56,561 bases of DNA from a virus (lineage: Duplodnaviria > Caudoviricetes). Below are positions 12,776 to 56,561 of the stretch, piece by piece (positions within the stretch are counted from its first letter, which is position 1; every line of letters starts with the position of its first letter). Under the pieces are notes generated by a model. It was not told the DNA's origin and did no database searches. It worked only from the letters and a program-made list of their open reading frames with translations. The stretch spans positions 1 to 56,561 of the IMG/VR virus record IMGVR_UViG_3300033149_005620, one strand, 5' to 3'. Made by a program: the position numbers and the translations under genes.

Positions 12776-13336
12776 TCAGTGGTTTTCCTGGTCTTTTTTG
12801 ATGGCTTCATTGAGTGCCTGGAGGTTCATTTCACCTCTTACGTCAACCTCAATGGGCTTGCCATCTTTACCGGTGTGTTCGTGCCTGTCCGGGGCGTATG
12901 TGCCTTTGATTTTGAAAGCCATATCCAGGGCTCTGCGCTGAGTCTCGAGTGCAACGACGTCGATCCCTATAAGCGAATCGCCGGGATCCTCGCCCGCTTC
13001 TGAGGCGACCACTAAGCGGTGGCCCTGGGGTAGTTCCTTCTCATTGATCACGCCTTTGAGTTTATGGAAGACGGTCTGCTTTGCCTCAATGAGATTGAGG
13101 AGTTTGAGTTTCAGGCGGTTATCGGAAAAGCCATGCTCATCGAGCCAGCTCTCAATTTCGGTGGCGAGCAGGTTTCGGTTCCGATACCCGATTTGCCCAA
13201 AGCTGTGTCGACTGGTGGCACGATAGCCAGCGGCAATTGCCGAGGCGGTGGCGTTCAGGAACGTGTGACTGCCTTCGTCGAGGTAAGCTTTAAGCCACGC
13301 TATTTGCTTTGGGTTCCTCGCTTTTTTCTTTGCCAT
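12776..13336 (-). CDS. terS: Terminase small subunit
   Basis: FLNATASAIAAGY HTH, RALDMAFKIKG, EHTGKDGKPI tail; directly upstream of TerL. Confidence 0.85.
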   Translation of the reverse strand: MAKKKARNPKQIAWLKAYLDEGSHTFLNATASAIAAGYRATSRHSFGQIGYRNRNLLATEIESWLDEHGFSDNRLKLKLLNLIEAKQTVFHKLKGVINEKELPQGHRLVVASEAGEDPGDSLIGIDVVALETQRRALDMAFKIKGTYAPDRHEHTGKDGKPIEVDVRGEMNLQALNEAIKKDQENH

Positions 13337-13531
13337 CTAAAAACAGCACGCCTTTATTGGTCGGTTATGAATTGTTGCCTTCCACACCAGTAGATCAATG
13401 ATGGGGACGCGCAGGGGTCCCGGTTCTGGCCAGGAGCAAGCTTCGCCGCGCTCTTTGTCGATGCCCGCAATAATCTTATCTTCTATCCTGTGGCGCTCCC
13501 TTTCCCTGTCATTTCCCTTTTTACCGGTCAT
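13337..13531 (-). CDS. Hypothetical protein
   Basis: Short ORF coupled between neighbours. Confidence 0.4.
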   Translation of the reverse strand: MTGKKGNDRERERHRIEDKIIAGIDKERGEACSWPEPGPLRVPIIDLLVWKATIHNRPIKACCF

Positions 13532-13991
13532 CTAATCCATGGTCCCTTGCCCACCGGAGGCTCACGCCCTGGTAGGACGACTCCCCTTTTAGCCACTTTG
13601 GCTTTCTCTGATTAAGGGGCCTCATCCTGACGTAATACCGCGCCCATGCAACCTTGAATTGGCGGCACATAGCGGGGGTCATATTGAGCTTTCCGGAGCC
13701 TTTCCAGGCGCAGTAGGAATCAAGTGCAGTGAAGTCGTTGTCGAACCAGCAGGCGATCTCTATGGATTTTAGGCGGGGTACGGCGTTAGGGTCGAATTCG
13801 CCAGGGGGAGCGTCTTTCTCCCACACACCCCCTTCACAATAAAAATCCAGGAGACCGGTGAATCTGGCGTCCTGGATTGGGCATAAAAACGTCTTTTTGT
13901 CTTGGCCTTTACATGCGAAACTCCCGTTAAAAGTGCATTTTGGCGCAAAAATCCGAAGTCTAGCGGAGTTTAACCTACCTCTTATCCCCAT
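13521..13991 (-). CDS. Hypothetical protein (start uncertain)
   Basis: Protein-like ORF; a TTGACA at 13996-13991 suggests a promoter overlapping the annotated start. Confidence 0.45.
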   Translation of the reverse strand: MGIRGRLNSARLRIFAPKCTFNGSFACKGQDKKTFLCPIQDARFTGLLDFYCEGGVWEKDAPPGEFDPNAVPRLKSIEIACWFDNDFTALDSYCAWKGSGKLNMTPAMCRQFKVAWARYYVRMRPLNQRKPKWLKGESSYQGVSLRWARDHGLDDR

Positions 13992-14102
13992 GTCAAGTGT
14001 CCGGGAGCTAAAAAAGGGGGGAAGAAAGGTGCTTTTTCGGGGTAAATCGCGGAAGAATGATACCCTTTCGGGGCAAATCGAGGCCTTGTCAATTTTGACC
14101 CC

Positions 14103-14312
14103 CTATTCGGTAGAGACGCATGGTTCTGAGGCAGGTTGAAGTGTGACGCCTTTCACTCTCTCCAAGAGGTCTTCCTCAAAAACCGCAATCCTGGGTCTAT
14201 AAGCCTGGAGGATGGGCGTGTCTGTTCGGCGCAGTATCTTCCGCGCGGTCCGCTTGCTTACCCCAAGCTTTTTCGCTATCTCCCCAAGCCCAACGATAAT
14301 GTTCGCACTCAT
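14103..14312 (-). CDS. Small HTH DNA-binding protein (possible late regulator)
   Basis: GLGEIAKKLGVSKRTARK HTH. Confidence 0.7.
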   Translation of the reverse strand: MSANIIVGLGEIAKKLGVSKRTARKILRRTDTPILQAYRPRIAVFEEDLLERVKGVTLQPASEPCVSTE

Positions 14313-14432
14313 TTGCGATCTCCCTTGGTCTTCCTAGCTAACCACTGGAAAATCATCACGATTGCGGCAAGCCCCAAGCCGATGATTGCGCCTATCAGGG
14401 CTGATTTCATCATTTACCCCACCTCCTCTGCT

Positions 14433-15185
14433 TCAACACTTATCAACGCTGTATACCGCCGATTCCGGGACCGTTTTAAGTTTCTGCTCGCGGATCCGGT
14501 TACCGGTGCGCAGGAATTCCTTTTCGTCGTTGATCAGGTTCATGACCAGTGCGTAGACCTTGTCGGTGTAAGGTATGGGCTCGTTGCACCTGTCCAGGAA
14601 GCAAAAGCTGGTTGATGGATAGTGGCCACGCCACCTCCGGACTCCATCGAGCCTCACAACATCGGGTTTAGCGAGGAATGGCTGTGATCTATGGTAATCA
14701 CCAAAAACGTTGCCGATAATCCAGCTGTGCTTACCTATGACAATCACCCGGTTCGTCCTCCGGTATACCTTCCACTGCTCAAATCCGATGAGATCCCTCA
14801 AAAGCAATTGTGCCTTACATTCGGATTTATACGGAGCCCGTTGCGCTTTCAGTTGCTGCCGTTTGTTCGGCCTTTTCGGTTTCTGAGGTATAGGTGCAAC
14901 GACCGGGCTTGCACAATTGGTCCCCGTATAGGGTGAGTGCACGAACTTGGAACGCTCTGACGGTAGGCCAGGGTAATAGACGCACCCTGCCGCAATAGCT
15001 AGAGCTGTACCAGGGCTGAAGTTAGGAGTTTGCCCCCCTTCAGAAAGTGCTATTGTGCTTCCCGGTAAAAGCCCCGCTCCTTGTGGGCGAGGAGCCTTAA
15101 TATGAGACATAGAATTCTCCGCCCATTTCCGAAATTTACTAGCCAGTACAGCGCTACTTAGTTCGTGGAATAAAAATTCCATCAC
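14433..15185 (-). CDS. Hypothetical protein
   Basis: 250-aa ORF whose GTG start overlaps the TGA stop of the upstream gene. Confidence 0.6.
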   Translation of the reverse strand: MMEFLFHELSSAVLASKFRKWAENSMSHIKAPRPQGAGLLPGSTIALSEGGQTPNFSPGTALAIAAGCVYYPGLPSERSKFVHSPYTGTNCASPVVAPIPQKPKRPNKRQQLKAQRAPYKSECKAQLLLRDLIGFEQWKVYRRTNRVIVIGKHSWIIGNVFGDYHRSQPFLAKPDVVRLDGVRRWRGHYPSTSFCFLDRCNEPIPYTDKVYALVMNLINDEKEFLRTGNRIREQKLKTVPESAVYSVDKC

Positions 15186-15583
15186 CTGTTCCTCCTCTCC
15201 TCGTAAAGTTTTAAGAACGCTCTAAAGCTTTTTACGACCGGGTAGATGTGACCCAGCCTTGAAAAATTCAGCTTCATGGCCTTCTGTGCGGGGGTCAACC
15301 TCCCCCTCTTGGACTTAAGCTCAAAGGCGAGCCACCGGCCGCCCCCAATGGCAATCATTCAATCCGGCCAACCAGGTGTCAGGATCCCCCGGACCCGAGC
15401 GCTCTGCCTGTTTCACTGGCAGGGGTACCCCCGGTCCTTCGCCCACTTCATTATCCTGCCTTGGAGACGCCCCTCCGGTCCGGGTTCCGCTTCCTGGTCT
15501 TCTCTCGTCTCAGCGAACCCCATCTTCCGGTTGTACTCGGCCATATACTCGCTTACCTGCTCCTCTGTCGCCCGCAACCTCAT
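15182..15583 (-). CDS. VRR-NUC (PD-(D/E)xK) nuclease with two in-frame TGA codons (candidate selenoprotein; alternatively a pseudogene)
   Basis: AAGGAGGTG RBS and ATGA overlap with the replication gene. Translation: ...EGRLQGRIMKWAKDRGYPCQ*NRQSARVRGILTPGWPD*MIAIGGGRWLAFELKSKRGRLTPAQK... TGA at 15415-15413 and 15361-15359; GxPD...ELK...LTxxQ motif intact. Absent from the ORF track. Confidence 0.8.
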
Positions 15584-16653
15584 GCGTAGGGCACCTCCTT
15601 TGATTTGAGCTGTTCGGATTGTTTTTTCAGCTGCTGCAATCGCTCCTCCTCGCTCATATCCATGCCTTTGGTCGCTTTATCCACCAGTCCAGCTAGATCC
15701 GGGGCGGCCACTGCCCTGAAGCATTTGGCGCACAATCCGGTTTCCAGATCGATCATCACGTTCGTAGCTCCGCAACCTTTACACCGTGAACTCTGTACTG
15801 GCTCCTGGAGGGGCGGACCGCTGGTCGGTTTATTGAACTCCACCCACTTGAGCACCCAGTTCCTCCACGCAGCGATCCAGTCGTTGAATTTACTTTCGAG
15901 CTTTTGGTGGTGAGCTTTAAACTTTTCGAATTGAAAGGGGACCTCCTCTTCGGGCATGTGATATCTTTTCGCATAAGCTTTCATCTCGCTGGTGGGATAG
16001 AAATTCTTTGGGAGTGGCACCTTGACTTTGAAGTGAAATTTCTCTCCCTCGGATTTTTTTGAATTTTTAGGGTGAGGAGGGTCCGCAGGTGCGGCCCTCA
16101 TATTCTCCTTCTCTATCTCCTTCTCCTTCTTTGTCTCTATCTCTATCTCCTTCTCTATCTCTGTCTCTGTCTCTTTTGTCTCCACACTTTGTGGACACTG
16201 TGTTGACACCATGGGGGACAAGGTGTGATACAAAGTGTCCACATCTTGTCTTTTAAGATGCTTCCCTCCGTACCTCCTGAGGGATTCCATCAGTGATTCC
16301 AGCAATGTAAAGGATGAGGGAATAATTTGTGAGACCATAGACAAGATTCCCTGGGCGTGACTTTCGTTTTTTGGAGGGTTCCATTTGAGGTATTTTTTGA
16401 TCAGCACAAATTTTGAGGTCTCGCAGTACTCCAAAAAACCTAATTTTTCAAGGTGTCGACATGATGTGGACACGATGTCCACACTATATCCCAGATCCTC
16501 CGCAATGTAGCTTCTTGGGAGCCGGAAGCAGCCTAAGGAGTTCCCGTGCTCACATGAAAGGAGGTATGCTCCTATCAGCTTGACCTGGTCCGTGAGGTTG
16601 TGGGCTTGAGCCCAGGACCAGTACCTTGTGTGGATTTTTCCGAATTCTCTCAT
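15580..16653 (-). CDS. Phage replication initiator (replisome organiser-like)
   Basis: N-terminal wHTH-like region (YIAEDLGYS), ETETEIEKE linker, C-terminal FEKFKAHH...DWIAAWRNW domain and a CxxC...CxxC motif. Confidence 0.8.
   Translation of the reverse strand: MREFGKIHTRYWSWAQAHNLTDQVKLIGAYLLSCEHGNSLGCFRLPRSYIAEDLGYSVDIVSTSCRHLEKLGFLEYCETSKFVLIKKYLKWNPPKNESHAQGILSMVSQIIPSSFTLLESLMESLRRYGGKHLKRQDVDTLYHTLSPMVSTQCPQSVETKETETEIEKEIEIETKKEKEIEKENMRAAPADPPHPKNSKKSEGEKFHFKVKVPLPKNFYPTSEMKAYAKRYHMPEEEVPFQFEKFKAHHQKLESKFNDWIAAWRNWVLKWVEFNKPTSGPPLQEPVQSSRCKGCGATNVMIDLETGLCAKCFRAVAAPDLAGLVDKATKGMDMSEEERLQQLKKQSEQLKSKEVPYA
16190..16482. repeat. Candidate iterons (replication origin) inside the initiator gene
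   Basis: TGT(G/T/C)GAC-type units about 11 bp apart at 16190 and 16201 and at 16454, 16465 and 16476; inverted GTGTCCAC at 16235; next to a pyrimidine tract at ~16103-16176. Confidence 0.55.
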
Positions 16654-16656
16654 GGT

Positions 16657-16929
16657 TTACCCCACTAACTCATAGGCTTTGCGGACGTCCTCTTCGGTTA
16701 GCTTTCCAGCGACTTTACCGGTAGACGCTTTCAAGTACTCTTGTGGCTTGAAACCTCTTATCTTCTTTGGCCAGGGAGAGCCAAAAGGGGCAAAATAAAT
16801 ATCAGCACCCCTCAATGATGTCTTTTTTTTGGTTCCACGTTTCCACGGTGGGTCTGTGAAAATTCCGTCAACGGAATTATCAGGAAGTGATTTCAAAAAC
16901 TCTATCCCGTCTCTCAGTTGATATACCAA
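16657..16929 (-). pseudogene. Internally deleted N6/N4 DNA methyltransferase remnant
   Basis: DGIEFLKSLPDNSVDGIFTDPPW (catalytic motif IV) followed almost at once by a degenerate motif I (FAPFGS); only 90 aa. Confidence 0.6.
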
Positions 16930-17162
16930 CCCTAACCTCTAACGGCTTGGTTTTTCGCTTGCATTTTATGCCCTGGGCATATTATTAAACTCTTCAAGAG
17001 CTTAACCTTCCCGCCAACCCTCAATACGGGGGCTTCAATGCTGACGTCTATTCAAAAATTCTCCTACTACGTCCACCTGTTTTTCCCTGTTGTTTTTAGT
17101 TCCGATATTATGGTATTCAGAGTTTAAACCCTTTAAACACCTTTAAAAGCAGGAGGCCGCTC

Positions 17163-17483
17163 ATGAAAAAGCTTATTGTTTTTGCTGCTTTACTTTTTGT
17201 TCTGTTCTGGCCATTGTATGCTGGAGCAGGCCAAACCTGGGTCAGAGGCTATTACCGTAGCGACGGAACCTATGTTCAAGGGCATTGGCGGACTACCCCT
17301 GACTCAACTCGGATGAATAACTACTCATACCCAGGGAACTACAACCCGAATACCGGGCGGGTAACGCCCTACTCAAACAACCCAAGAAGGCTATTCCCAT
17401 CAAACCCGAGCCCATATAATGATAGCTTATTAGGACTCCCTGGTTCGAGGCGTGGTTCAGGCTACCGTAATTATGGGCGCTGA
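17163..17483 (+). CDS. Secreted small protein (moron)
   Basis: Signal peptide, VRGYYRSDGTYVQGHWRT...GNYNPNTG; AGGAGG RBS; AT-rich flanks; opposite strand to neighbours. Confidence 0.8.
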   Translation: MKKLIVFAALLFVLFWPLYAGAGQTWVRGYYRSDGTYVQGHWRTTPDSTRMNNYSYPGNYNPNTGRVTPYSNNPRRLFPSNPSPYNDSLLGLPGSRRGSGYRNYGR

Positions 17484-17636
17484 TGCCCGTCAGATTATAT
17501 TGCAAGGTAGTACTCATTCACTGTCGTTTCATAGAATAGTCCATTGTTGCTGTTTCTGGCAGATTTCCCTTTGGTCAACTTTAATAACTTCATGTTATCC
17601 TTGATATTTTCTGTAAAATAATTTTTTCATTATTTT

Positions 17637-17843
17637 TTAATAAGACTCATCCTCAGGTTCCTGGCATACTTTTTCCCAAAAGTCCGGGGAGTCCATCGTG
17701 GCCAGGATGTGTTTGCGGATCGCCTCACAAACAAAATCGCTGCGAGACCTGAACACCTTGTTCCTGGCAGCATCAAGCTGCTCGATCAGCCATCCCGGCA
17801 TGCTGACGGAGATCGTCTCCCGGGCCTCATTGTTGTGAGCCAT
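17637..17843 (-). CDS. Ribbon-helix-helix (CopG-like) regulator
   Basis: TISVSMPGWLIEQLD...SRSDFVCEAIR; AGGAGG RBS. Confidence 0.85.
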   Translation of the reverse strand: MAHNNEARETISVSMPGWLIEQLDAARNKVFRSRSDFVCEAIRKHILATMDSPDFWEKVCQEPEDESY

Positions 17844-17969
17844 GAAAGGCCTCCTGTAGGGTTTTCATGGTGCGAGAGGCAGAGGATAGCGCAATAGGGG
17901 GTTGGGGGCCTACCGCTGCCTATTCCTCTGCCACCACACAGGGGGCTGCGCCCCCGCCTATTTCGTGCT

Positions 17970-18238
17970 TCATTCTGCCCAGGGGTTAAACCCGAGGGCA
18001 TCTCTAATCTTGTCTTTCACCCGGGCGGACACAGGCCTCCCCTTCAGTGCGCGAAGCACCGAGGTATGGCTCAACCCCAGGTCTGACGCGAAATTTCTTA
18101 TTGATTTCCATTGGAACCTGATGATAAGAGTAAGAATTGTTTCCAGTGGAACTTTAGGCGACTCCAGTGAGCGCAAGAACCTGAAAACCTTGAGGTTTTG
18201 GCTGTTTTTCTCTGTCATGGGACTTAGGTGGCGTTTCA
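17970..18238 (-). CDS. HTH DNA-binding protein
   Basis: SIRNFASDLGLSHTSVLRALKG; real start probably MKRH or MTEK rather than 18422. Confidence 0.65.
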
Positions 18239-31745: not shown

Positions 31746-33404
31746 ATGCAGAAGCGAAAGCACCAAGCAGAGTTTGATTGCGTGATGGAGCGCATTATTA
31801 GCGGGGATCCCATTCACACGATTACGCTTCATGTGGTCCCTGGGGGAGGGAAGTCGGCCATTCCAATCATTGCCGGTCGGCTGATCACCGCAGGGTTGGC
31901 CGATCGGCTCTGCTGGGTGGTGCCGCGCAAATCGCTCCAGGACCAGGGAGAACGCAATTTCCTTGATCCGTTCTTTCGCCGTATGTTTGACCACCAGTTG
32001 ACCATCCGATCGTCTACGAATGAAACGGATCCGTGCCGAGGGCAGAGCGGCTTTATCACCACATACCAAGCATTGGGGGTAGACCATGATCGGACGGTAT
32101 ACCGAGAGTTTCTCCGAAGGCGATATATCCTCATTCTCGATGAGTTCCACCACTGCGAGTACGGCGGTGCTTGGGCTGGCTGCCTACGTGATATTGTGCG
32201 ACTTGCCGAATACCGAATCCTTATGTCTGGTACCCTTGAGCGTGGAGATAATGCCCGCATTGCATTTATCCCCTACATTGAAGAAGAGCCAGGAATATTT
32301 CGACCCGCCCCTGCCCAGGGAGAGGAGTCCGCCTTTATTCGATATTCCCGGAGCGCCGCATTGATGGAGCAAGCAATCATTCCTTTGCGCTTTTACCTAT
32401 CGGACGGTTACGTGGAATGGGAAACGAAACAGGGCGTGCGGCGGTCCGGGAAACTGTCCAAGATGAACGAGGAGGCCTCGGCAGCCCTTTTTACCGCCTT
32501 GAGCACCCAATTTGCAGAGCAAATCCTGAAAAGAGGCCTCGAACATTGGTCCCGCCATAAAGAACGCAGCACAATATCAAAGCTTCTTGTCGTCACAGCC
32601 AACTACTCGCATGCCAAGCACTTTGCTGGGTTGCTCAAGGCGATGGGCTATAAGGCGAAAATAGCAACGTCTCATGACAGCCCGGTGGCCCTGAAGAACA
32701 TAAAGGAGTTTAGATTCGGGGGGCTGGATATTTTGGTGACCATAGCAATGGCCTATGAGGGGCTCGATGTCCCGCAGATCTCGCACATTATATGCCTCAC
32801 GCACATCCGGACGCTCCCCTGGATAGAGCAGATGATCTCCAGGGCGGTCCGCATTGATCCCAGCGCTGGACCCTATGAAAGCCAGGTTGCCTACGTTTTC
32901 GCGCCGGACGACCCCCTATTTTCCGAGGTGGTTGAGGCTATTCGTCAAGAGCAGGTGCCCATAGTCGGTGACGTAGAAAGGGCGCCCAACAAGGCTGCAG
33001 GAGATAGTCGGGAGCCAGAAAGAGAGCCCTGGATTACTCCTTTGGGCGGAGAAATTACCGGGTCGCGCGAGATCTCCATGTATGGGGCAGCCTCGGATGC
33101 AGGGAGGCCCTCGCAAACGATTACGGTAAAAGATATGGAGGAGGAGCTCCTTGCCCGGATAAGCCGCCACATTGCCAGGTTCAGCTTCGAGAATCGGTAC
33201 AAGCCCCAGAGGATAAACGCCGAGGTCAAGGCGCATTTCCGTAAGGCCAGACGGAATATGACGCTGCGTGAACTTGAGGAGTGCTTGAAATTCGTTCAAT
33301 ACGCCTATCCCCTAAACGGCAGGGAGGGGCGCTCTGCTACCAGCCCGCCGAGGGGCAAAAAGCGCAGGGTGCCGACACAGGTAAGATTATGGGGCATGGA
33401 TTGA
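31746..33404 (+). CDS. Superfamily 2 (DExH) helicase
   Basis: VPGGGKS Walker A, ILDEFHH, MSGT, YEGLDVP, EQMISRAVR. Confidence 0.92.
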   Translation: MQKRKHQAEFDCVMERIISGDPIHTITLHVVPGGGKSAIPIIAGRLITAGLADRLCWVVPRKSLQDQGERNFLDPFFRRMFDHQLTIRSSTNETDPCRGQSGFITTYQALGVDHDRTVYREFLRRRYILILDEFHHCEYGGAWAGCLRDIVRLAEYRILMSGTLERGDNARIAFIPYIEEEPGIFRPAPAQGEESAFIRYSRSAALMEQAIIPLRFYLSDGYVEWETKQGVRRSGKLSKMNEEASAALFTALSTQFAEQILKRGLEHWSRHKERSTISKLLVVTANYSHAKHFAGLLKAMGYKAKIATSHDSPVALKNIKEFRFGGLDILVTIAMAYEGLDVPQISHIICLTHIRTLPWIEQMISRAVRIDPSAGPYESQVAYVFAPDDPLFSEVVEAIRQEQVPIVGDVERAPNKAAGDSREPEREPWITPLGGEITGSREISMYGAASDAGRPSQTITVKDMEEELLARISRHIARFSFENRYKPQRINAEVKAHFRKARRNMTLRELEECLKFVQYAYPLNGREGRSATSPPRGKKRRVPTQVRLWGMD

Positions 33405-33472
33405 GCTGAGATATGACCTCGTGAGGGCAGCCCAAAAATACTTAGACGGTTGAGCTTAGAAGGGAGAAAGGA

Positions 33473-33715
33473 ATGAACGGCGAGATTAATGAGCAAGGGC
33501 ATCTTGTTATTTACAGGCCATCCAAGCACGGTTCCCGTGCGATGGAGCAACTATGCCCCCACCAAACAGAGCAATTGGTCCCATGTGGAGACTGGTGCCC
33601 GCTGTTTAGTGAGCCGGAGATTGGCACAGATCCGGATGGCAATTTGACCTCCGCCTCGATTCTCCTATGCGGTGGTCAGCGGTGGATATTCATGTCGTTC
33701 GCTGACGAACGATAA
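33473..33715 (+). CDS. Cys-rich hypothetical protein
   Basis: QLCPH...CGDWCPLF; GAAAGGA RBS. Confidence 0.55.
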   Translation: MNGEINEQGHLVIYRPSKHGSRAMEQLCPHQTEQLVPCGDWCPLFSEPEIGTDPDGNLTSASILLCGGQRWIFMSFADER

Positions 33716-33945
33716 TCGGGGCATTGGAGCGGGCAAGGGCCGGAAGCCCTATAAGGCGGTCACTGAATGCCCAAGCACAAGTTGTCCCTTGCACCGATAT
33801 CGCATTGGGAAAGACCCTGGTCGAAAGAAAAAGGGTGGCAACCCGAAAGTAATTCAGGATTCCGTCTCGGCCTATCTTAGGTAGGCCAAAATTACCCCAA
33901 CTCAGTTGGCAATTTTTGAACGAGACTTGATTTTCTATGGCCTCC

Positions 33946-33974
33946 TTGACATCTACCCCTTACCAACGTAAGAT
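33946..33974 (+). promoter_or_regulatory. Sigma70 promoter of the integrase
   Basis: TTGACA(33946)-17 bp-TAAGAT(33969); implies the true start is the ATG at 34015. Confidence 0.7.
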
Positions 33975-34014
33975 CGGCCCCGTATCAGCCAAATCTGGGG
34001 TTGGGGGCGATTGC

Positions 34015-35157
34015 ATGAAAGGGGGAATCTATTCTGATGAAAAGTGCCCCTTATGCGGGGGCAGGTTTAAAGATGATGGTCGGAGGGGACTCTTCTGCCC
34101 GAACCATCCAGAGCAAAGGGCCAGCAGGCGGTTTCGGATCTACTTCAGGGGGGTCACACGGCGTTTCAGGAGCTACGAGGCCGCTCAAAAATGCCTCACT
34201 GGCCTCAGGTTCAAGGAGGATGAGGGAACGTTCGACCCCAGGGAATATCGGGCTGATAATCCCCTTGGGTTTGAAAATCTAGCCAATGAGTGGCTCCGCC
34301 TCCGAGAGGCGGAGATCAGGCCGGACGGCATCAGCCCAAACACCTATCGGGCCCTTGAAGACCATATTTGGAAGGCGATTCGAGTTTTTGGCCCTGTCAG
34401 CGTAAAACGCCTGCGCCTGAAAGACTTCCAGTTTTTTCTCACCCAGTATAACGTCAGCAATAAGAGCAAATTCAATTATATTCAGACACTTAAGCAGTTC
34501 TTCAAGTGGCTTTACGATAATGATGAGATCTCGGTAATGCCCAAGTTCCCGAAGGTCCAGTTTGAGCTTCGCCGGCGAAAGACTGTTACGAAGGCAGACC
34601 AATTCGGTATCTTGGATACGCTGAAGGGGTGGGCCCCCTACAAGACCTGGCTGGGCATCAAATGGATGACCACCTACTTTAACGTGCGGCCCGAGGAATG
34701 GCGCAATATCCGGGAAGGGGACATCAACCTGAAGGCAAGAGAGATCCTGATACGGCACCCCAAGGAGAATAGGTCCAAAATCGTGTATCTCATTGACGAA
34801 GACGTGGAGATCTTGGGGGCCCTACCCCCTTGCATAGATCCTGACGCCTATTTCTTCCGCCATAAGAATGGGAGGCAATTCGGCGAGAAACATTTTTACA
34901 AGTGGTGGAAGCGGGCCTGTGCCAAGCTCGGAATCCAGGGAGTGGACCTCTACGGGGGCACTACCCACTCAACCACCAGGGCTCTCAGAAAATACCGCAC
35001 CCCGGAGGAGATCCGCTATGGCTCGATGAGGAGCACTACCAAGGCATTTGACCGCTACTACTGGGAGGAAGGAGACGACCTCAGGGCCATCTATTCCGAT
35101 GCTAGGGGTGGCAAAAAAGTGGCAAAGAAATTTAGGCACTCCGAAAGCGATAACTAA
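34015..35157 (+). CDS. int: Tyrosine integrase with N-terminal Zn ribbon
   Basis: CPLCGG...CPNH; core-binding helices; VRPEE, HPKE, LYGGTTHS, FDRYY; adjacent attP. Confidence 0.88.
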   Translation: MKGGIYSDEKCPLCGGRFKDDGRRGLFCPNHPEQRASRRFRIYFRGVTRRFRSYEAAQKCLTGLRFKEDEGTFDPREYRADNPLGFENLANEWLRLREAEIRPDGISPNTYRALEDHIWKAIRVFGPVSVKRLRLKDFQFFLTQYNVSNKSKFNYIQTLKQFFKWLYDNDEISVMPKFPKVQFELRRRKTVTKADQFGILDTLKGWAPYKTWLGIKWMTTYFNVRPEEWRNIREGDINLKAREILIRHPKENRSKIVYLIDEDVEILGALPPCIDPDAYFFRHKNGRQFGEKHFYKWWKRACAKLGIQGVDLYGGTTHSTTRALRKYRTPEEIRYGSMRSTTKAFDRYYWEEGDDLRAIYSDARGGKKVAKKFRHSESDN

Positions 35158-38085: not shown

Positions 38086-38135
38086 AAGTATGGCAAGTCG
38101 TGGCAGTTTATGGCGTTTTATGGCATCTTATGGCA
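38086..38135. repeat. Five 10-bp tandem units NNNNNTGGCR
   Basis: aagtatggca agtcgtggca gtttatggcg ttttatggca tcttatggca. Confidence 0.75.
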
Positions 38136-41100
38136 TCGCCTGCCTTAGGCGTTCCCTTTTTGGGGGCCGGAATGCCCGCCTGATATTGTTTCGTATGGAT
38201 TTCCGGGTGATGAGGGGTGCGAGGCGCTCAAGCCCGTGCGCCCTTACCGCTTCGTTGTAATCTTGAATTTCAGCGATGATATCCAACCAATCCGCCTTGG
38301 ACCGTTCAGATAGGGGACGCAGGTAAAAGCGCTTGATCTTGGCGTAGATATCCGTCCTCATTTCTCGATATTTCTGTTCAATGCGCCTCTCCTTCCATTG
38401 CTTCTCCCTAATCCCCGCGATCCTTGCGGGATTAAAGGAGAGAGCTCTGTAAAGTGCATCAATCGTCTCCGGGAGGAGCGGTTCATTGCCCCAGAAGACG
38501 GGTGCATTGTTTCTGGTGGTCACCCCCTCTGTGGTCTCTCTATATGCCTTTACTATTCCGGCCATGAAGAGCGGTAGTTCATTTTCGATGCCCTTTAGGA
38601 CGTCGCCACGCAAAATGCTTTGTGGACCGCGGTAGAATGTTTCAGATATGACGCTTCCAGGAGCGCCAAGGATTTCGGGTATCGTCGTTGGGATGTCGGT
38701 AATTCCGATCTGAAGCGAACCCTTAAGGGATACGCCTGCGAGACCGAAAGCGCCGAACCTGCCGAATCGCTCAGCGTATTCGCCAAAATTCCGGTTCAAC
38801 CAGTCGTAAAATTTTTCCTCTGGGTCTTCTCCGCCTATGCCCAGGGCTTGAGCGATTGCCGTTATGATAGGCGTAGAGACAGTCGCCCCAGTCCCGGCCA
38901 GCACGGCTGGACTCAGGAGCATCCACGAAAAAGCCTTTGCGTGCTCGGGCTTCCAGCCGGGACCCCACACTCGCTTCATGGTCAGAAGGTAGTTGTGCGA
39001 AAAGGTCCGGAATACGTAAAACATTCTGGCAATTTGCGCGGCAGGATTGGCGCCCCTAGCGAGGTATGGGATATTCGCCTTTCCGTAAACTCCGTGAGCC
39101 TTGTCTGAGACCTCCTTTGCAATGCGCAGGGCTTCGTCGTGGTTAAAGCTCCCTTGGGGTGTTTGGAGCTTCAATCCAAGGTAAGTGCCTGCAATTGTCG
39201 AAACCCTGTTGAGTTGCTCGGTAGCCCCGAAGCCGAGCATGGCCCATTCGATTGCCCTGTTCCACCCTCGGCCTAGCTTGCTCTCAAGAACTGACAGCGC
39301 TTCGCGATTGTATTGCGACTTGTGCCAGCCTTTCTGTTCGATCTCCTCAAAAAGGTCCTTGACGTGCTGCGGTAATTTATCCTTGTCACCGAATTTATAG
39401 TGGCCGTAAAGCCTGGAGGCGTTGCCGATGAGACGGAAGGTCTTGTGTATCGGGATCCCAGCGATACCTTCCATAGCTGCCGGGACTGACGTTACCATGG
39501 CAGTGAGGTTCACCAAGGGGGCGCTGATGCGGCCGCCTAGATATTTCAGCACCGCCACGCCCTTGACTGTGCCCACGAACCGGTCAATCCACTCTTCGTT
39601 CCTGAGCACGTCCTGCAGGTACGCTTTGCCTTCCCTGAAGGCATTGGGCTGTTTCGTGGGGTTGACCCGCCGGTCCTCCACCATGTTGAGCCACTCCTCA
39701 TACGTGGCGTCCTCGCCCTCAAGGGTCTTGTACTGCTGCCAGGTAATGTCTGTGCCAGTGAACGCTCGAACCATGTCAAGCGCTGCGATCCTTTTAGCCT
39801 CCCCTGCGGCCAACCCCGACGCATATTTCGCCGCGGCAATAGCCGGGTCCTCCTCATAACCGATCCAGACATCCTTGCCCTTGGCCATTTGGCGCTGGAT
39901 CATGTGGGCACGGTGCCCACGACCCTTTATGATGTTGGCCACTTGCTCGGCCATGGCTTTTGCGAACAGTACCTGCACCTCTTGGTCAACTATGCCAACT
40001 GAGTTGGCCAGCGCCTTTGCGACCTTTTTGTCGAAATTCGGGCCAGGGTTGTAGAAATGCCAGGCCCTCGGCTCCCCTTCATACGCTGAATAGAACTTTC
40101 CGCCCAGCTCCTTAAAGACCCGTGTCATCCTCTTGGATGTCGGTCCGGTGATAACGAAGTCCCTGAGCCCTGGCCTTACCATCCTGTCGGTCCACTGGAG
40201 GTTAAAGTCCTCTAAAGATAGTCCGCGCGCATGTATACGCTCAAGGGCCTGATTGATCTGCGCCTGCATGGCAATGACCTGGCCTGCCATTTCGAAGACG
40301 TCTTCCGGCATCTTGGGGGAGAGATCCTTCGTGACGGTGTACCCTTTCCTTTGGAGTTCTGTGTGCCGCTTGGCAAGAAGCGTTTTGGTGTCAAAGAATT
40401 CCATGATCGGGTTTTCGCCCTTCTTTTCGGCGTACAGCACGAATCGCCCGGGCCTTCTTATGCGCGGGAAGTAGTAACCTCGCATATCCCCCATCATGGC
40501 TAGGGCGGTTTTGAGGTCAACTTCTACCCTTTTGTTGTCCAGCCTGACCGCTACTGAGGGTAGTGCCGTACCCGACTCCTCATATTGGCTGATAATTTCG
40601 CGCATCGAAGCTGACAGGATATTAAAGCCTTTATGCATGATTAGCCGGAAGGACACCACCGCGTCAACGGCTTGGTCGGGAAAGCCGCGCTTTCTAAGGT
40701 CCTGAGCCTCCATTTGAACGGCAGCGCCCCATGCCTTGGCCTCAGAGTCATAACTGCCCACTAACTGGCCGTTTGGTTTCCTGAGCTTCCATAGGTCGCT
40801 ACCCTCGTCTTTCTCAACCCTGTACCCTATTTGGTTGCGGTCGCGGTTGACTAGGTACGCCTTGACCTTAGCGTAGTCCTGTTTGTGGCGCTTTCTGAAG
40901 TCCTCCAGCTTTTTGGTAAGGTATTCACCTTTACTGTTCTTGGTTAGGAGATTCAGGTACTCATAGTAGGTGTCGGGCCTGGCAAGAGCCGCCTCGTACA
41001 TTCTCCTTAAAGCGGGGACCTTCTCAAAGTGATGTGCCGGCACTGATATGAGGCGGTCGAGGACCGTGGTATCTGGCTTTTGAGCTTTCCACCCAGCTTT

Positions 41101-44100
41101 GCGGTTCTTCCATATTTCCCCAAGCGTGCGGAGGGGGCCTAAGGACCCCCTTGAAAAACCCTGTTCGTATTTCTTCTCTTCAGCCTGAAAAGTGCCTTTG
41201 CGTCCGCCGTATTTTTCCCAGGTCTCGATCACGTGCCTGTTCCAGTCATCAAATGTGCCTGAGAAATGCTTGGTCGGAACTATGCGGGGCTCGACTTCTG
41301 CTTCTTTCCCCGGGGGCTCCGCCAAAGAGAAAGCCGTCGTAGTCTCTTCGATCTCTGGTGCGCCAAAATGCGGGACATACTGCCCGGTGACCATTTTGCC
41401 CCAGATATCCTCGGGACGGGTAAAACCCTGTCCCTTGAGCCCGTTCCTAATGATTTGCAGGTAGCGGCGCAACCTCATCATGATTGCGCGGATCATGTTG
41501 GGCTTATCTTTGAGCGATGAGCGATTCACCATGAATTCCGCAAAGGCATCCGCAGCGGCCTCCTCGCTACCAAAATATTTTATCAAGTGCTCCGCATCGG
41601 ATTTTGTCAGTAGCCATCTCTGGGCCACGTGCATGTATTCGTGATAGGTGGTGCGTTCCAGCCCTTTCAAATTCTGAAGCGACAGGGCAAGTTCCATAAT
41701 CGCGCGATAATCGTCAAAGGTGGTAGCACCAAAAATCTGGCGTATCCCCATGCCCTGTTCCTGCCACTCCTTCACTGACTTGGCAATATTTTTTCCGCTC
41801 AAGGAGATTATGGGCTTTAGCTCTACATCAATGCGCTCAAGCACTTCGGGAGGTGCTCCGGCTTTTTCGAGCCAGGAGTGAACCAGCTTGGCGGTCCTTT
41901 TGATATTTCGGAATTGGCGCGGGGATAGGCGGTATGGTTGTTCGCCGCGGAGAGCTAGTTTGGTTTCGGAAAGAAGCGTGGCATATTTTGTGGGACCTTT
42001 GCCACGCCCTTGTCGCGAAGCCCACGATTGGGCTTCCCAAAATACGTCTACTATCGTCAAACCTTCAATTCCGTTCCACAGGGCATTGACGTAGTCCGAG
42101 CGCGCCTGGGTTAGCACGCTGTTGTTGACGATCATTCCGCTGGCGTTGGTGGCTTCGGCGATCCTTAGAACGTCGGCGGTGGTCTGCTTCATGCTTCTGC
42201 CTTTGATAAAGGGCACAAAGGCAAGCACCCTGTTTTTGCGGTCAAGGAGCATAACGCCATCGTCATTATTGAATTGCTCCTTCAGGGCTTTGAGCGCGTC
42301 CTCCGAATCGACGATTCTAGTCTGTGGGGCGCCGCCGAGAAGCAGGCTGCGCTCTTTCACCGGAAGGCTAATTTTGCGAATTCTGGGGCGGATCTTCCTT
42401 GTTGTCTCTGCCACTTCCCCTGGGCGCATCTCAACGTATTCGGTTCCACCAAGAATAAGTGATGTCAGTTCCACATCGCCAGCCTCAAGAAGGCTCCTGA
42501 CGCTTGAAGTTATCTGGTAATCTTCTTTGCCTGGTTTCGGGTCACCTGTGGGATGGTTGTGGACGAGATAAGCTTCAGATGCCCCAGGTATGTTCAGTAT
42601 CCGCCCAGCAAGTTCAACGGGGTTGGCTATGGCACCGGCGCTGTGACCCTTGGCGTACTTGTGGATCTCAAGGATTCCACCTTCTTTATCAGTCGTTACC
42701 GTGTAAAGGAATTCTTGTGGCGATTTTCTGAGGAAGGCGAGGAGGGCTGCAACATCCTCTGGGCCTGATACGAGTTCTCCCGCCGCTCTAATTCGTCCGG
42801 TTGTGGAAACTCGCACACGTCTACGGGGAGGTACTTTACGATCCTCTTGCCGTTCGGCAGGCTTGAAATCAAATAGTGAATATTGCTCTTGGGGCGTGGT
42901 AGGTGCATAAATGTATTGTGCCCCGCTTTCACCTATCTTGTCAACACCTCTCTCAAAAATATCAAGCGTTTCCCCCTTCTCCGGGGCAAGCAGACTCTTC
43001 TGTTTGCCGGTGGTAGGGGGTTTAACCTTTTCTTTGGGGATAGCGGCTTTAGGCTTGAGGTATTGCTGAAAGACTCGGGCGGCCTTTGCCTGGTCAATCG
43101 TAAAGGTTTCCGGGTCAAAGCCCAGTTCTTTGAGGCCCTCCCAGGAGCCTTCGACTTCGTAGTAGATCCGGCCTTCACTGTCCCTGCCTCTTATGAGCTT
43201 GCGGCCATCGGGGAGTTTAATGATTTCTCGATCCCCTTCCCGATATGCCTTGATGGGCTTTTCAATCTCGCCTTTTGCCCTCAGTAATTCGACCCTCTCT
43301 TGAGGCGTTGGCTCGGTCGGTTTGAGTTCAAGGGCTGGTCTTGCAGCCTTCTCCCTTGGCTGTGCTTTCTCGACTTCTTTGGGTTTCTGCGCAGCCTCCA
43401 GCTTACTCAGTGTAACGGAATCGTATATCTTATACCAGTCTTTCGCGTCCATGCCCGGCTTTAAGCCAGTCTTTCTAATCCAGTGGCTCCAGGATTCCTG
43501 CCTACCAACACCCTTGGCTTTAAGTTCCGCTGCGAACTCTTCGGGGTTTAGCGGTACTACCTTAATTTTCAGCCTTGCTCCCAAAAGTTCCTTGTGCGCT
43601 TCATCCAGTGTTATTAGGCCGCGCTTCAACCGATCAATCGTCCCGTAAAAACCTTTGGCTTCAAGTTGCTTCACGATGTCTTCATAGGATTTTTTGGACG
43701 CGGATGGGGGAATCCTGCGACTTGTCCAAGTGGTCCGCCCATTTGGTTCCCTCTGAAGGACGTAGACAAGGCCCTTTTCGTCGTCATAGAGCTTCCAGGT
43801 CTCAGCGCTTTCCCTTCCCGTACCGGGCAGGCGTTCGACCCGAGCCCCGGCTTTCTTGGCTTTTTCAATAGCCCTGATAATCTTTTCACGCGGGGTGTAA
43901 TGCCATTTCTTTTCCGTGGGATCCCACACGCTTTGCTGCACAGCGTGAACCCATCCAATGGCATCGTCTATAGATTTGCTCTCAGGAGGGCTCTTTCTGG
44001 CGGGGGGTCTTTCTGCCTGCTTCTCTTCGGCGGGTTTCAGGCCGAGCTCTTTATCAAGCCAGTCCTGGTCTTCTTGGGAAATCTCCTTCCATGCTTCGTC

Positions 44101-47088: not shown

Positions 47089-47090
47089 TT

Positions 47091-48623
47091 TTACTTCTCC
47101 TCGCTTCTGAGTCCGGCTGTTCCAGGAATCCTTATGCCCAAGAGGGCATTGCCAGCCCAATTCAAGCCTTTCCAATAGGTCTTGAAGGCCTCCCGGAGGT
47201 ATTGCTCAGTCCACTTATCCGCCTTCCGCACCTTCTTGAAGAACTTCTTGAATGAGTCGAAGTCCACCACCTTTTCATCTTCCGGTAAAAGTGGGAGGTA
47301 CTCTGCCGCTACTGCGCCAGCGCGCTCGGGACTCATGCCCGATACAAGCCGTTTCCCAATCTCTTTTGCCGCCTCAGCAATTGTCAGGTTCTGGGTTGCC
47401 TCCTTGCGCAGTTCCTGGCGTATGGCGTTGACTTCTGGCGAAACCGGAGGGGGACCCTCAATCTGCTGGGCATTAAGGGCATCCCTAAAACGCTCTTGCG
47501 CTTCCGGGTTCTGCTTGAAGTAAGCTTCTGTTGCAGCCCGAACCTTGGGAAGACTCATAGGGTCAACGCCCTGTTTGAGTAGCTCGGCATGGATAGCGAC
47601 AAGCTTGGAAAACAATGAGCCAGCAGTCGGTTGGGTCGGCGCCGCAGGTGCCGTTGCTCTTGGAGCCTCCGGTAATGCTGATGGCGTTATAGGCGCTCCA
47701 CGAGGGGCTATTCCTGTAGGTTGAGCTAAAGCGTTGGTTGGTCTTTGGCCGCGGATTTGGTCTATCTGTTTCATGGTTTCTTCGAGGCGTCGAGTTGCGG
47801 CCGCTGCCTGTTCTGGAGGCACAACAGGGTTGCCCTGAAGATCCTTTTCTCCCATGCGGTACGCCTGTATTATTTCAATCTCTGCTTTTGCCTTCTCTTC
47901 GAGCAAGTTCAGCCTGCTCTTTTGCGCCGGGGTCAATCCAGGCTGCTCGTATTTTGCCCTGATTCTCTGCTTGGCTTCCTCAAGGTCAAGCAACTCTTCC
48001 TTGGTGGAGGGCTCCCACTTCTTCCTCTTTCCAATTCGTTCATCATAGGTCTGGTACCGCACCGGATCTTCTGCTTTCTTCGCCCGAGCCTCCGCCTTGG
48101 GAAGGTTATAAACCCTCCGCTCAGCCGTGTCGTATAAGGGCTCAATTTCCCCAGCTTTACCGAACTTGATACCGACATTATGTGCAGCTGCGAAATCAAA
48201 GAATCTGGCTTGGTATTCCGGGTTCTGGTGAATTTGGGGCAAATACTGCCTGAGTTCCTCCATCACGGTCTTGACGTCTTGGGGGTCCCCAATTACCTCG
48301 GTGCCATCAGCAAAGGTGTAGTGGCGGTCGTTTTTATCTATACGCCACGTTTCAGCTGGAGGGTCTGAATCTGGCTCCAAAGCCTTGAAGGCCTTGTCAG
48401 CAAGGTCCTTGTTCCCGGTTTTCTCATAGGTGTCAATGTAAGCGTTAAAGGCATCCAGACTTCGTTTCGCCTTCTCGTATTCCTCTGCTCTGCCTACGTC
48501 CCTCAAATCTCGCTCCGCCAATGCCTGCCTCGTCTGGAGGTATTTCAGGCTTAAAGCGTTTTGCATTGACTTGCCTATTGAGGGGACAGGCGGCGGATTC
48601 ACTAAAAAATTAGCCATTTTCAT
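47091..48623 (-). CDS. Putative DNA ejection/internal virion protein
   Basis: Helical Ala/Gln/Pro-rich protein between the pilot gene and the giant gene. Confidence 0.6.
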   Translation of the reverse strand: MKMANFLVNPPPVPSIGKSMQNALSLKYLQTRQALAERDLRDVGRAEEYEKAKRSLDAFNAYIDTYEKTGNKDLADKAFKALEPDSDPPAETWRIDKNDRHYTFADGTEVIGDPQDVKTVMEELRQYLPQIHQNPEYQARFFDFAAAHNVGIKFGKAGEIEPLYDTAERRVYNLPKAEARAKKAEDPVRYQTYDERIGKRKKWEPSTKEELLDLEEAKQRIRAKYEQPGLTPAQKSRLNLLEEKAKAEIEIIQAYRMGEKDLQGNPVVPPEQAAAATRRLEETMKQIDQIRGQRPTNALAQPTGIAPRGAPITPSALPEAPRATAPAAPTQPTAGSLFSKLVAIHAELLKQGVDPMSLPKVRAATEAYFKQNPEAQERFRDALNAQQIEGPPPVSPEVNAIRQELRKEATQNLTIAEAAKEIGKRLVSGMSPERAGAVAAEYLPLLPEDEKVVDFDSFKKFFKKVRKADKWTEQYLREAFKTYWKGLNWAGNALLGIRIPGTAGLRSEEK

Positions 48624-51179: not shown

Positions 51180-51719
51180 CTATGCGGTACGTTTAAATAG
51201 ATAGATTGTGCCTACGACAGTGATTTCGCTTGTTGTGGCATCAATCGTTACCAGCTCCATGCTTTCACCAAAGGCCTCCCAAGTTCCGTACCCAAGGCTA
51301 TCTTTCGGGTCGGCATTGACTGTACTGACAAACACGGAGCCGACTGGCCAAGGGTCCGGCCGCTGGGCTTGGGGTTGATACAACCCAAGGGCGGCTGCCA
51401 GCCTAGCGTCGTCTATCTCCGCCTGAAAGTCTCTGTTTGCGGTTGGGTTTTCGGAGGCTTTATATAGATCAAGCGCTGCAGCTAGTGTGGCTTCGTTAAT
51501 AGATTTCTGGTAACCCTTGGCGTGAAGCAGCTCTAACTTTAGCTCAACTTCCTTAAGCCTCTTGTCGTAGTCCTTGTAGGGCTGATAAGTTGCCCCGACC
51601 TCCGAAATTGCGTCAACCTTGTCAACGCTGTCTGCCAGCTCCAGCGCCCAGTTGAAAATCGGTCTTCCTAGTTGCGCGAGGGCTCGTTCTACCGCCTTGG
51701 TTAGACGCCTAGCTCCCAT
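51180..51719 (-). CDS. Tail-associated protein
   Basis: C-terminal WPVGSVFVST...PKDSLGYGTWEAF...YLFKRTA, typical of tail/baseplate domains. Confidence 0.6.
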   Translation of the reverse strand: MGARRLTKAVERALAQLGRPIFNWALELADSVDKVDAISEVGATYQPYKDYDKRLKEVELKLELLHAKGYQKSINEATLAAALDLYKASENPTANRDFQAEIDDARLAAALGLYQPQAQRPDPWPVGSVFVSTVNADPKDSLGYGTWEAFGESMELVTIDATTSEITVVGTIYLFKRTA

Positions 51720-56447: not shown

Positions 56448-56561
56448 CACGGCCTGAGGTTCGCGGTATATGTAGAAGAGATGAAATTCTTCCAGAACCT
56501 CCTCAAGCACGGGGAGGAAAAACTCTACTGAATGGTGAGATTTTACGATGTTAAGGACTGG
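56448..56561. repeat. Terminal direct repeat, right copy
   Basis: Identical to 1-114. Confidence 0.97.

Follow-up and report, generated by a model that had tools for sequence, protein, structure and literature searches.

Virus-encoded selenocysteine (Sec) is known from the poxvirus homologs of glutathione peroxidase, and a natural diselenide is known from SelL; both are redox enzymes served by eukaryotic Sec insertion sequence (SECIS) elements in the 3' untranslated region. In phage Q-beta, UGA read-through adds a domain to the functional coat protein and so yields A1. Here we describe a gene that would combine elements of these systems in a tailed phage. It lies on the minus strand of a 56,561-base DNA from a virus of the Caudoviricetes (IMG/VR record IMGVR_UViG_3300033149_005620), the whole of which we call the window and to which all coordinates refer. 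The gene specifies a predicted VRR-NUC-like nuclease and contains two in-frame UGA codons, at codons 57 and 75 (UGA-57 and UGA-75). We consider it likely that both encode Sec. The initial annotation of this DNA had proposed a candidate phage selenoprotein, and that proposal is supported by the recurrence of the UGA in relatives, by the alternation of UGA with cysteine and by purifying selection beyond the stop. The features of the gene are as follows.

15182..15583, minus strand: VRR-NUC-like nuclease gene, 133 codons plus stop, with two in-frame TGA codons predicted to be read through
15413..15415, minus strand: in-frame TGA at codon 57, candidate Sec codon; TGC or TGT in relatives, TGA in the relative L124
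15362..15367, minus strand: P73-D74 of the PD motif; D74 is invariant in 95 homologs
15359..15361, minus strand: in-frame TGA at codon 75, candidate Sec codon, directly after catalytic D74
15314..15322, minus strand: E88-L89-K90, the (D/E)xK motif; E88 and K90 are invariant in 95 homologs

The outline of the gene given in the initial annotation proved correct. The frame begins at an ATG (15583-15581), closes with a TGA (15184-15182) and keeps both its PD and its ELK motif; the two internal TGAs are 18 codons apart. A frameshift reading was rejected, because the frame is uninterrupted but for these two codons. A TGA directly after the D74 codon recurs in nine DNA-verified lineages (the window, L001, L021, L079, L082, L083, L085, L121 and L125), of which L001 and L021 come from IMG/VR and L079, L082, L083 and L085 from metagenome contigs. 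The nine share 40–73% pairwise identity (median 52%), and every one stays in phase beyond the TGA, past ELK, Q, GH and RS[FY], until a normal stop is reached. Among metagenome loci, seven of nine have TGA at codon 75 and the other two GTA and TGC; two of the seven are the contigs of L001 and L021, and one is near-identical to L001. TGA at codon 57 was verified in two DNA sequences, the window and L124, the latter having TGT at codon 75 and an otherwise intact gene. All 11 verified in-frame stops (nine at codon 75, two at codon 57) are TGA, with no TAA or TAG. For a selenoprotein gene one asks that the in-frame UGA be conserved between two or more differing sequences, as it is here.

The same pattern is visible in protein databases. 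Seven of the best 150 protein representatives terminate exactly at residue 74, and a 56-residue representative, P0068, which is the nearest relative of the window product (31 of 56 residues identical), terminates just before codon 57, this last case being known at the protein level. A search of IMG/VR with P0068 returned no contig beyond one already known. The early-ending representatives each form a singleton cluster and derive from JGI, Logan, ENA and NCBI assemblies. UGA-75 belongs to one subfamily, because an unbiased pattern search of the wider family returned TGA at codon 75 in 1 of 76 matches. No internal stop was found in the nuclease homologs of the four homolog-bearing genomes among 401 sampled from the phylum of a Desulfobacteraceae metagenome-assembled genome (MAG; G001, see below). 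Standard gene callers split or truncate this gene, ending it at residue 74 or 56 and calling a 58-residue C-terminal piece separately, and the family is therefore invisible to routine annotation.

We compared substitution on the two sides of the stop in 21 pairs drawn from seven lineages. The proportion of synonymous sites that differ (pS) is saturated at 0.71–1.08, whereas the proportion of nonsynonymous sites that differ (pN) downstream of the TGA is 0.23–0.47 (mean 0.381), with an upstream mean of 0.246. Because pS is saturated while downstream pN is low, the part of the protein after the TGA is translated and selected. Neutral evolution here had been named in advance as the mark of a pseudogene; what we found is purifying selection, and to judge from these substitution patterns the gene is not a pseudogene. 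Recoding is called for because the stops are recurrent, exclusively UGA and under selection, and sit in the middle of a catalytic domain.

Recoding could in principle extend to the whole genome, and the use of TGA elsewhere in the window bears on this. The stops of 56 hand-listed genes, which are open frames under translation table 11, divide into 20 TGA, 20 TAA and 16 TAG, and not one of their 16,835 codons, including those of a 3015-codon open reading frame (ORF), is an in-frame TGA. Under genome-wide reassignment (codes 4 and 25), TGA would be frequent within genes and avoided as a stop, the opposite of what is seen, in agreement with the earlier judgement that this phage does not recode its genome. 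ARAGORN found no tRNA gene in the window. Reassignment and a phage suppressor tRNA are ruled out by the TGA stops, the TGA-free codons and the absence of a tRNA gene, and assembly error is ruled out by the occurrence of the same TGA in independent assemblies from four sources. With only the two TGAs themselves in their favour, we give these explanations a negligible chance.

A second possibility is that translation stops at each UGA and restarts just 3' of it, the fragments then assembling into an active nuclease. The window offers some encouragement, in that ATG follows UGA-75 and the source annotation has the 58-residue C-terminal piece (P0002) as a gene of its own. The codon 3' of TGA-75 is ATG in the window only, however; in the other eight lineages it is CTA, ACT, ACG, GTC, ATT, ACA, ACT and ATT, so that none has ATG, GTG or TTG in this place, and no start codon follows UGA-57 in the window. 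The cut would also part catalytic D74 from the strand that it begins. We rejected a split gene on the lack of start codons, and hold it to be very improbable.

The identity of the nuclease is best seen through its homologs. The read-through product matches phrog_93 (endonuclease) at 1.8e-13 over residues 5-131, an alignment that spans both TGAs, and a full HMMER search of 1.84 billion representatives returned 334 homologs, mostly of 120-140 residues, that cover both sites. A word-indexed protein search with the same product gave no scoring match. Against Pfam VRR_NUC (PF08774), the product itself has an E value of 0.076 and 13.5 bits, below the gathering score of 23.8; 57 of the 95 aligned homologs match PF08774 at E ≤ 0.01 (best 1.9e-8), and the family profile matches the VRR-NUC structure 4qbo in the Protein Data Bank at 2.3e-7, followed by FAN1 and Hjc. 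The catalytic D...(D/E)xK plus Q signature is complete: D74, E88, K90 and Q100 are invariant in the 95 aligned homologs and all present in the window. An AlphaFold2 model of the nuclease (mean predicted local distance difference test score, pLDDT, 90.3) has helices at 37-50 and 98-109 and strands at 55-57, 75-79 and 83-89. Its top Foldseek matches are 4qbl, 4qbn and 4qbo (probability 1.00; target-normalised TM-score against VRR_NUC structures 0.60-0.78), with archaeal Hjc resolvases next, and the model together with these matches has the alpha-beta-beta-beta-alpha-beta order of VRR-NUC. Profile and fold both bear out the VRR-NUC membership claimed at the outset, and the window copy is, by these comparisons, a divergent member reached via its homologs. 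The product is predicted to be a small structure-specific VRR-NUC (PD-(D/E)xK) nuclease of the phage replication module, and the reading as a whole, Sec included, is the one that we think probable.

We then asked which residues occupy the two sites in other members of the family. In 149 representatives, position 57 is most often histidine (52), serine (30), isoleucine (13) or cysteine (10), and position 75 phenylalanine (38), leucine (37), isoleucine (19), cysteine (13) or valine (13), with a single tryptophan. Closer to the window, the picture is dominated by cysteine: codon 57 is Cys in every UGA-75 relative, and the nearest sense-codon relatives have Cys through TGC or TGT (L086, L002 and L124; also P0004, P0007 and P0064). 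The alignment of homologs at the two positions, on which the selenoprotein proposal had been staked, therefore came out in its favour. PMC1976440 asks, among other criteria for Sec, for two or more homologs with Cys in line with the UGA and for TGA/Cys pairs in more than 50% of homologs. Cys homologs number 13 of 149 at position 75 and 10 of 149 at position 57; the TGA/Cys share is far below 50% over all 149 representatives, and within the 19-row clade that holds the stops, 12 of the 18 rows whose codon-75 state is known have a stop or Cys there.

The two positions also vary together. All four combinations at 57 and 75 were found: Cys,Cys (L086/P0004, P0007 and P0064); Cys,UGA (eight DNA lineages); UGA,Cys (L124); and UGA,UGA (the window, alone among DNA sequences). 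The stop moves between partners within short distances, because L124 (UGA,Cys) has as its closest relative L082 (65% identical), which is Cys,UGA, and L083 (UGA) is sister to L086/P0004 (TGC) with support of 96 in the Shimodaira–Hasegawa-like approximate likelihood ratio test. In a coevolution analysis by mutual information with average product correction, the pair 57-75 ranks 24th of 3580 and the pair 56-76 44th; residues 57 and 75 are both coupled to residue 41 of helix alpha-1, and residue 57 also to residue 45. These couplings, with the strand assignment in the AlphaFold2 model, are the basis for a 57-75 contact, and fit an arrangement in which residue 57 (end of beta-1) and residue 75 (start of beta-2) would be antiparallel neighbours, one at either end of the beta-1/beta-2 loop.

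The initial annotation had further placed a SECIS-like hairpin after each UGA, with the loop exactly 22 nt downstream.

15382..15396, minus strand: hairpin after UGA-57, 6-bp stem, 3-nt loop from 22 nt after the TGA
15326..15352, minus strand: hairpin zone after UGA-75, two overlapping hairpins

Both hairpins exist and have their loop 22 nt after the TGA, but neither is individually significant. The zone after UGA-75 comprises the bulged hairpin first proposed (15326-15343, loop 15336-15334) and an overlapping 8-bp hairpin (15331-15352), and the minimum-energy fold takes a different, overlapping hairpin from the one first proposed. As a statistic we took the best simple hairpin with its loop starting 14-30 nt after the codon and compared it with 1000 within-gene permutations of synonymous codons. 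By this measure the UGA-75 hairpin of the window (-12.2 kcal/mol) has P = 0.053. Across nine UGA-75 sequences the combined Fisher P is 1.2e-4 and every z is negative, whereas 15 sense-codon relatives give 0.975 (Mann–Whitney P between the groups, 4e-4). The contrast was seen in the discovery set (seven UGA-75 sequences, Fisher P 0.0058; nine sense-codon relatives, 0.94) and again in validation sequences fetched once the statistic was fixed: two new UGA-75 genes have P values of 0.011 and 0.012, each with an 8-bp stem, their loops being at +22 and +20, and six new sense-codon genes have a Fisher P of 0.85. In L124 the hairpin moves with the stop, an 8-bp hairpin following UGA-57 (P 0.095) and none following the Cys-75 codon (P 0.71). 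All seven UGA-75 sequences compared have GGC as codon 82, which tops the 5' arm, and synonymous-codon identity over codons 76-90 is 74/158 in UGA-75 sequences compared with 64/218 in sense-codon relatives. A hairpin is thus associated with UGA-75, and for that class the SECIS-like description gains support from the comparison; for the UGA-57 hairpin of the window it does not.

As a positive control we applied the statistic to five true selenoprotein genes (three fdhA and two selD, from MAGs G001 and G002). Their hairpins have energies between -0.9 and -9.7 kcal/mol and z values between +0.35 and -1.27; the loop starts at +18 to +20 in four of the genes, and at +18 to +30 over all five. The hairpin statistic makes a weak test, and the hairpins of the nuclease lie in the range that real SECIS elements span. 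A search of window positions 14800-16000 against Rfam at a permissive threshold gave 0 matches; to our knowledge Rfam has no bacterial SECIS model, so that this blank says little. Hairpins of unusual stability, given the protein sequence, also occur about 20 nt after codon 57 in the Cys-57 relatives L021, L086 and L088 (z -1.87, -1.89 and -1.48). They could be remnants of a time when UGA stood at codon 57, or could simply follow from Lys, Ala, Gly and Phe codons.

Read-through need not involve selenium. In programmed leaky termination, UGA-57 and UGA-75 would be misread rarely by a near-cognate tRNA (for Trp, possibly for Cys), perhaps with help from the downstream hairpin; a potentially toxic nuclease would in this way be kept at a very low level, and UGA would be retained as the leakiest stop. 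Recurrence and purifying selection suit any read-through mechanism, and positions 57 and 75 tolerate many residues, as expected if the inserted residue is inexact. The base after the recoded TGA is A at eight of the 11 verified sites (C, G and T once each, T in L124), compared with T7, A5, C4 and G4 after the 20 true TGA stops of the window; the A is explained, however, by Thr or Ile at residue 76, which is also present in sense-codon relatives. As background to such leakiness, PMC7918605 states that genes of mobile elements often contain in-frame stops and that E. coli and Salmonella read TGA as Trp, though at low frequency.

The position of the stops is difficult to reconcile with this idea. 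In Q-beta-type read-through the terminated product is complete and functional, whereas both TGAs here are inside the nuclease domain and before ExK; a stop between D74 and ExK, in mid-globular domain, would leave a useless fragment, unlike known read-through genes. The strong ribosome-binding site of the window gene is ill-suited to a need for low expression. More of the same protein could be had from TGG, yet of the 149 representatives just one has Trp at position 75, as against 13 with Cys, and Trp/Trp in place of the Cys/Cys pair of the clade would presumably entail a large change in volume. The second UGA of the window replaces the Cys codon of a coevolving partner residue, and in relatives 8-23 codons could turn into TGA by a single step, 2-4 of them being Cys codons. 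Near-cognate read-through explains recurrence but not Cys alternation, the partner positions, the position swap or the tracking of UGA by the hairpin, and we therefore rank it below Sec, as an unlikely explanation. Sec is favoured because Cys alternates with UGA, and not Trp, the residue that bacteria usually insert when they misread UGA; because the two UGAs of the window occupy coevolving partner positions; because the Sec position would swap between partners in close relatives; and because the hairpin tracks UGA.

It might also be that UGA-75 is recoded throughout the family and that the window copy alone is decaying, TGA-57 being a recent inactivating nonsense mutation. The window is the only DNA with both TGAs and the most divergent UGA-75 lineage (downstream pN of 0.40-0.47 against the others), the hairpin after its UGA-57 is not significant, and a 90-residue methyltransferase fragment (16657..16929) means that the phage has at least one truncated gene. 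Against decay, the gene has no frameshift or other stop, keeps D74, E88, K90 and Q100, and retains intact start/stop overlaps with both neighbours. Moreover, its nearest relative, P0068, likewise ends at residue 56, L124 has TGA-57 in an otherwise intact gene, and TGA-57 replaces a Cys codon precisely at the partner position of residue 75. We regard decay of the window copy as improbable.

If Sec is inserted, the phage should infect a host that uses it, as the initial annotation had pointed out. Nuclease relatives with Val-75 are found on a contig of the Desulfobacteraceae MAG G001 and on a short contig binned as Anaerolinea (G002). Both MAGs have selB above the curated cut-off and a Sec-type selD, and G001 also has three Sec-type fdhA genes. 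Relatives of the window terminase were present in four of the 401 sampled genomes of G001's phylum (best 64% identity), and one weak match was obtained in 401 genomes of G002's phylum. All four genomes with terminase relatives carry selB above the curated cut-off, and none of the four contains a nuclease of the subfamily with stops; a back-translation scan of genome contigs for the terminase yielded no confirmed relative. Altogether, selB is present in six of the six genomes linked through terminase or nuclease relatives. This fits a Sec-using host, as that part of the proposal would have it, and is a lead only.

Several points weigh against Sec. Positions 57 and 75 are variable core sites that are mostly not Cys family-wide; because they vary across the 149 representatives, Cys is not a conserved catalytic residue, and we know of no redox chemistry in VRR-NUC nucleases. 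On well-supported branches, only one phylogenetically independent contrast bears on the 57/75 coupling. The remaining points concern the hairpins. Relative to dinucleotide shuffles, the RNA at the two TGAs of the window has no excess stability (z +0.67 and 0.00 in 60-nt windows, +1.19 in 131 nt), and the minimum-energy folds of its relatives are likewise no more stable than shuffles. The UGA-57 hairpin of the window (-6.5 kcal/mol) has P = 0.29 against synonymous-codon permutations, and several Cys-57 relatives match it in quality (z -1.87, -1.89). RNAalifold found no consensus structure in seven or nine UGA-75 sequences, the hairpin register moves by 1-3 nt among lineages, and four of the nine hairpins are weak (-2.6 to -5.0 kcal/mol). 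Finally, the hairpin statistic was devised after the first seven sequences, its validation includes only two UGA-75 genes, and it ignores kinship.

We propose the following model for Sec in this nuclease. SelB and tRNA-Sec of the host would read UGA-57 and UGA-75 as Sec, directed by a hairpin about 20 nt 3' of each UGA. As neighbours, residues 57 and 75 would pack against helix alpha-1, and the pair would be Cys/Cys, Cys/Sec or Sec/Cys in the clade and Sec/Sec in the window. It would probably form a buried disulfide-like link (a selenylsulfide, or a diselenide in the window) or act as a redox-sensitive pair. Failing Sec insertion, only fragments of 56 or 74 residues would be made, and because these lack ExK, active nuclease would depend on the selenium machinery of the host. 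In its fullest form, the model describes the first bacteriophage selenoprotein family, in which a Cys/Sec core pair forms a selenylsulfide (here a Sec-Sec diselenide) that would not open even in the reducing cytoplasm of an anaerobe, Sec may be on either partner and nuclease output is gated by host selenium; this we offer tentatively, as something that may well prove untrue in one or more of its parts.

The gene is flanked by the following elements.

15593..15600, minus strand: Shine-Dalgarno-like AAGGAGGT, 9 nt 5' of the ATG, as read from the sequence
15580..16653, minus strand: upstream gene, DnaD-like replication organiser/helicase loader (phrog_1701 at 4.2e-28)
14433..15185, minus strand: downstream ORF of 250 residues with no family match

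The nuclease ATG shares bases with the TGA stop of the upstream gene (ATGA), and its final TGA shares bases with the GTG start of the downstream ORF (GTGA); the strong ribosome-binding site and the overlaps with both neighbours, which had been noted before, were found again in the sequence. Just upstream of the replication organiser lies a 90-residue ORF with a DPPW motif (16657-16929, minus strand). Its match to phage DNA methyltransferase families is confined to their N-terminal part (phrog_6025, 1e-7), and it has the look of a truncated methyltransferase.

A 114-base direct terminal repeat (1-114 and 56448-56561) indicates that the contig is a complete phage genome, circularly closed or terminally redundant. 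It carries genes for an integrase, SbcCD-like proteins, a helicase, a ParB-like protein, a terminase, a portal and head proteins. Given the integrase gene (33937-35157, plus strand; phrog_1 at 6e-19), the phage is probably temperate. A blastn search of window positions 13000-18000 against INPHARED gave no match to a close phage relative. Three further loci deserve mention. Positions 38128-47175 on the minus strand form the single 3015-codon ORF, to which many giant virion or DarB-like phage proteins match at residues ~580-740 (best 9.2e-52), with a second short match at residues 1476-1580. The helicase gene (31746-33404, plus strand) ends in TGA, and its frame continues for ~160 codons (33404-33884) with three further TGAs and no TAA or TAG, which may be chance. 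The head-closure gene (51723-53117, minus strand), which has a TGA stop, shares its frame with the gene that follows (51180-51719), and between the two lie that TGA and a single codon.

If confirmed, Sec in this family would add phages to the users of the 21st amino acid. Its role would be new as well, because it would make up half of a structural or regulatory pair, and would do so in a DNA nuclease and not in a redox enzyme; the UGA would also serve as a host-range marker, for Sec-competent hosts, in a clade of uncultured phages. Even if the read-through had the leaky, selenium-free origin discussed above, it would be a rare example, in a double-stranded-DNA phage, of programmed UGA read-through that is conserved. 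Searches of the open-access literature gave no precedent for a phage-encoded selenoprotein, and a broad query of that literature likewise gave none for a VRR-NUC protein paired with read-through, in-frame stops or selenocysteine.

Set beside the systems described so far, the nuclease resembles each in part. With VRR-NUC (PF08774; 4qbl, 4qbn and 4qbo; the FAN1 nuclease domain) it has in common the D...ExK...Q motif and, in the model, the order helix-strand-strand-strand-helix-strand; it differs in an N-terminal extension of ~35 residues and in its in-frame UGA, which no described VRR-NUC is known to carry. Like the bacterial selenoprotein genes fdhA/fdhF and selD, it has an in-frame UGA conserved across diverged orthologs, Cys in other homologs and a hairpin loop about 20 nt after the UGA, and candidate host lineages carry selB. 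Unlike fdhA/fdhF and selD, it is borne by a phage and its product is a nuclease, not an oxidoreductase. Its candidate Sec site is a variable, buried core position, whereas in bacterial selenoproteins it is a conserved catalytic Cys; it has two UGAs, at presumably contacting positions; its hairpin register is not strictly conserved; and several of its hairpins are weaker than those of fdhA. The Q-beta A1 gene is likewise a phage gene whose full product needs UGA as a sense codon, but in the nuclease the UGA is inside one catalytic domain and relatives have Cys at the site. Compared with the poxvirus selenoproteins and SelL, the carrier here is a bacterial virus, the hairpin is in the coding region and the fold is that of a nuclease. 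The bacterial SelB/SECIS mechanism is known; the phage carrier, the nuclease protein and the use of a buried pair in place of a catalytic Cys would be new.

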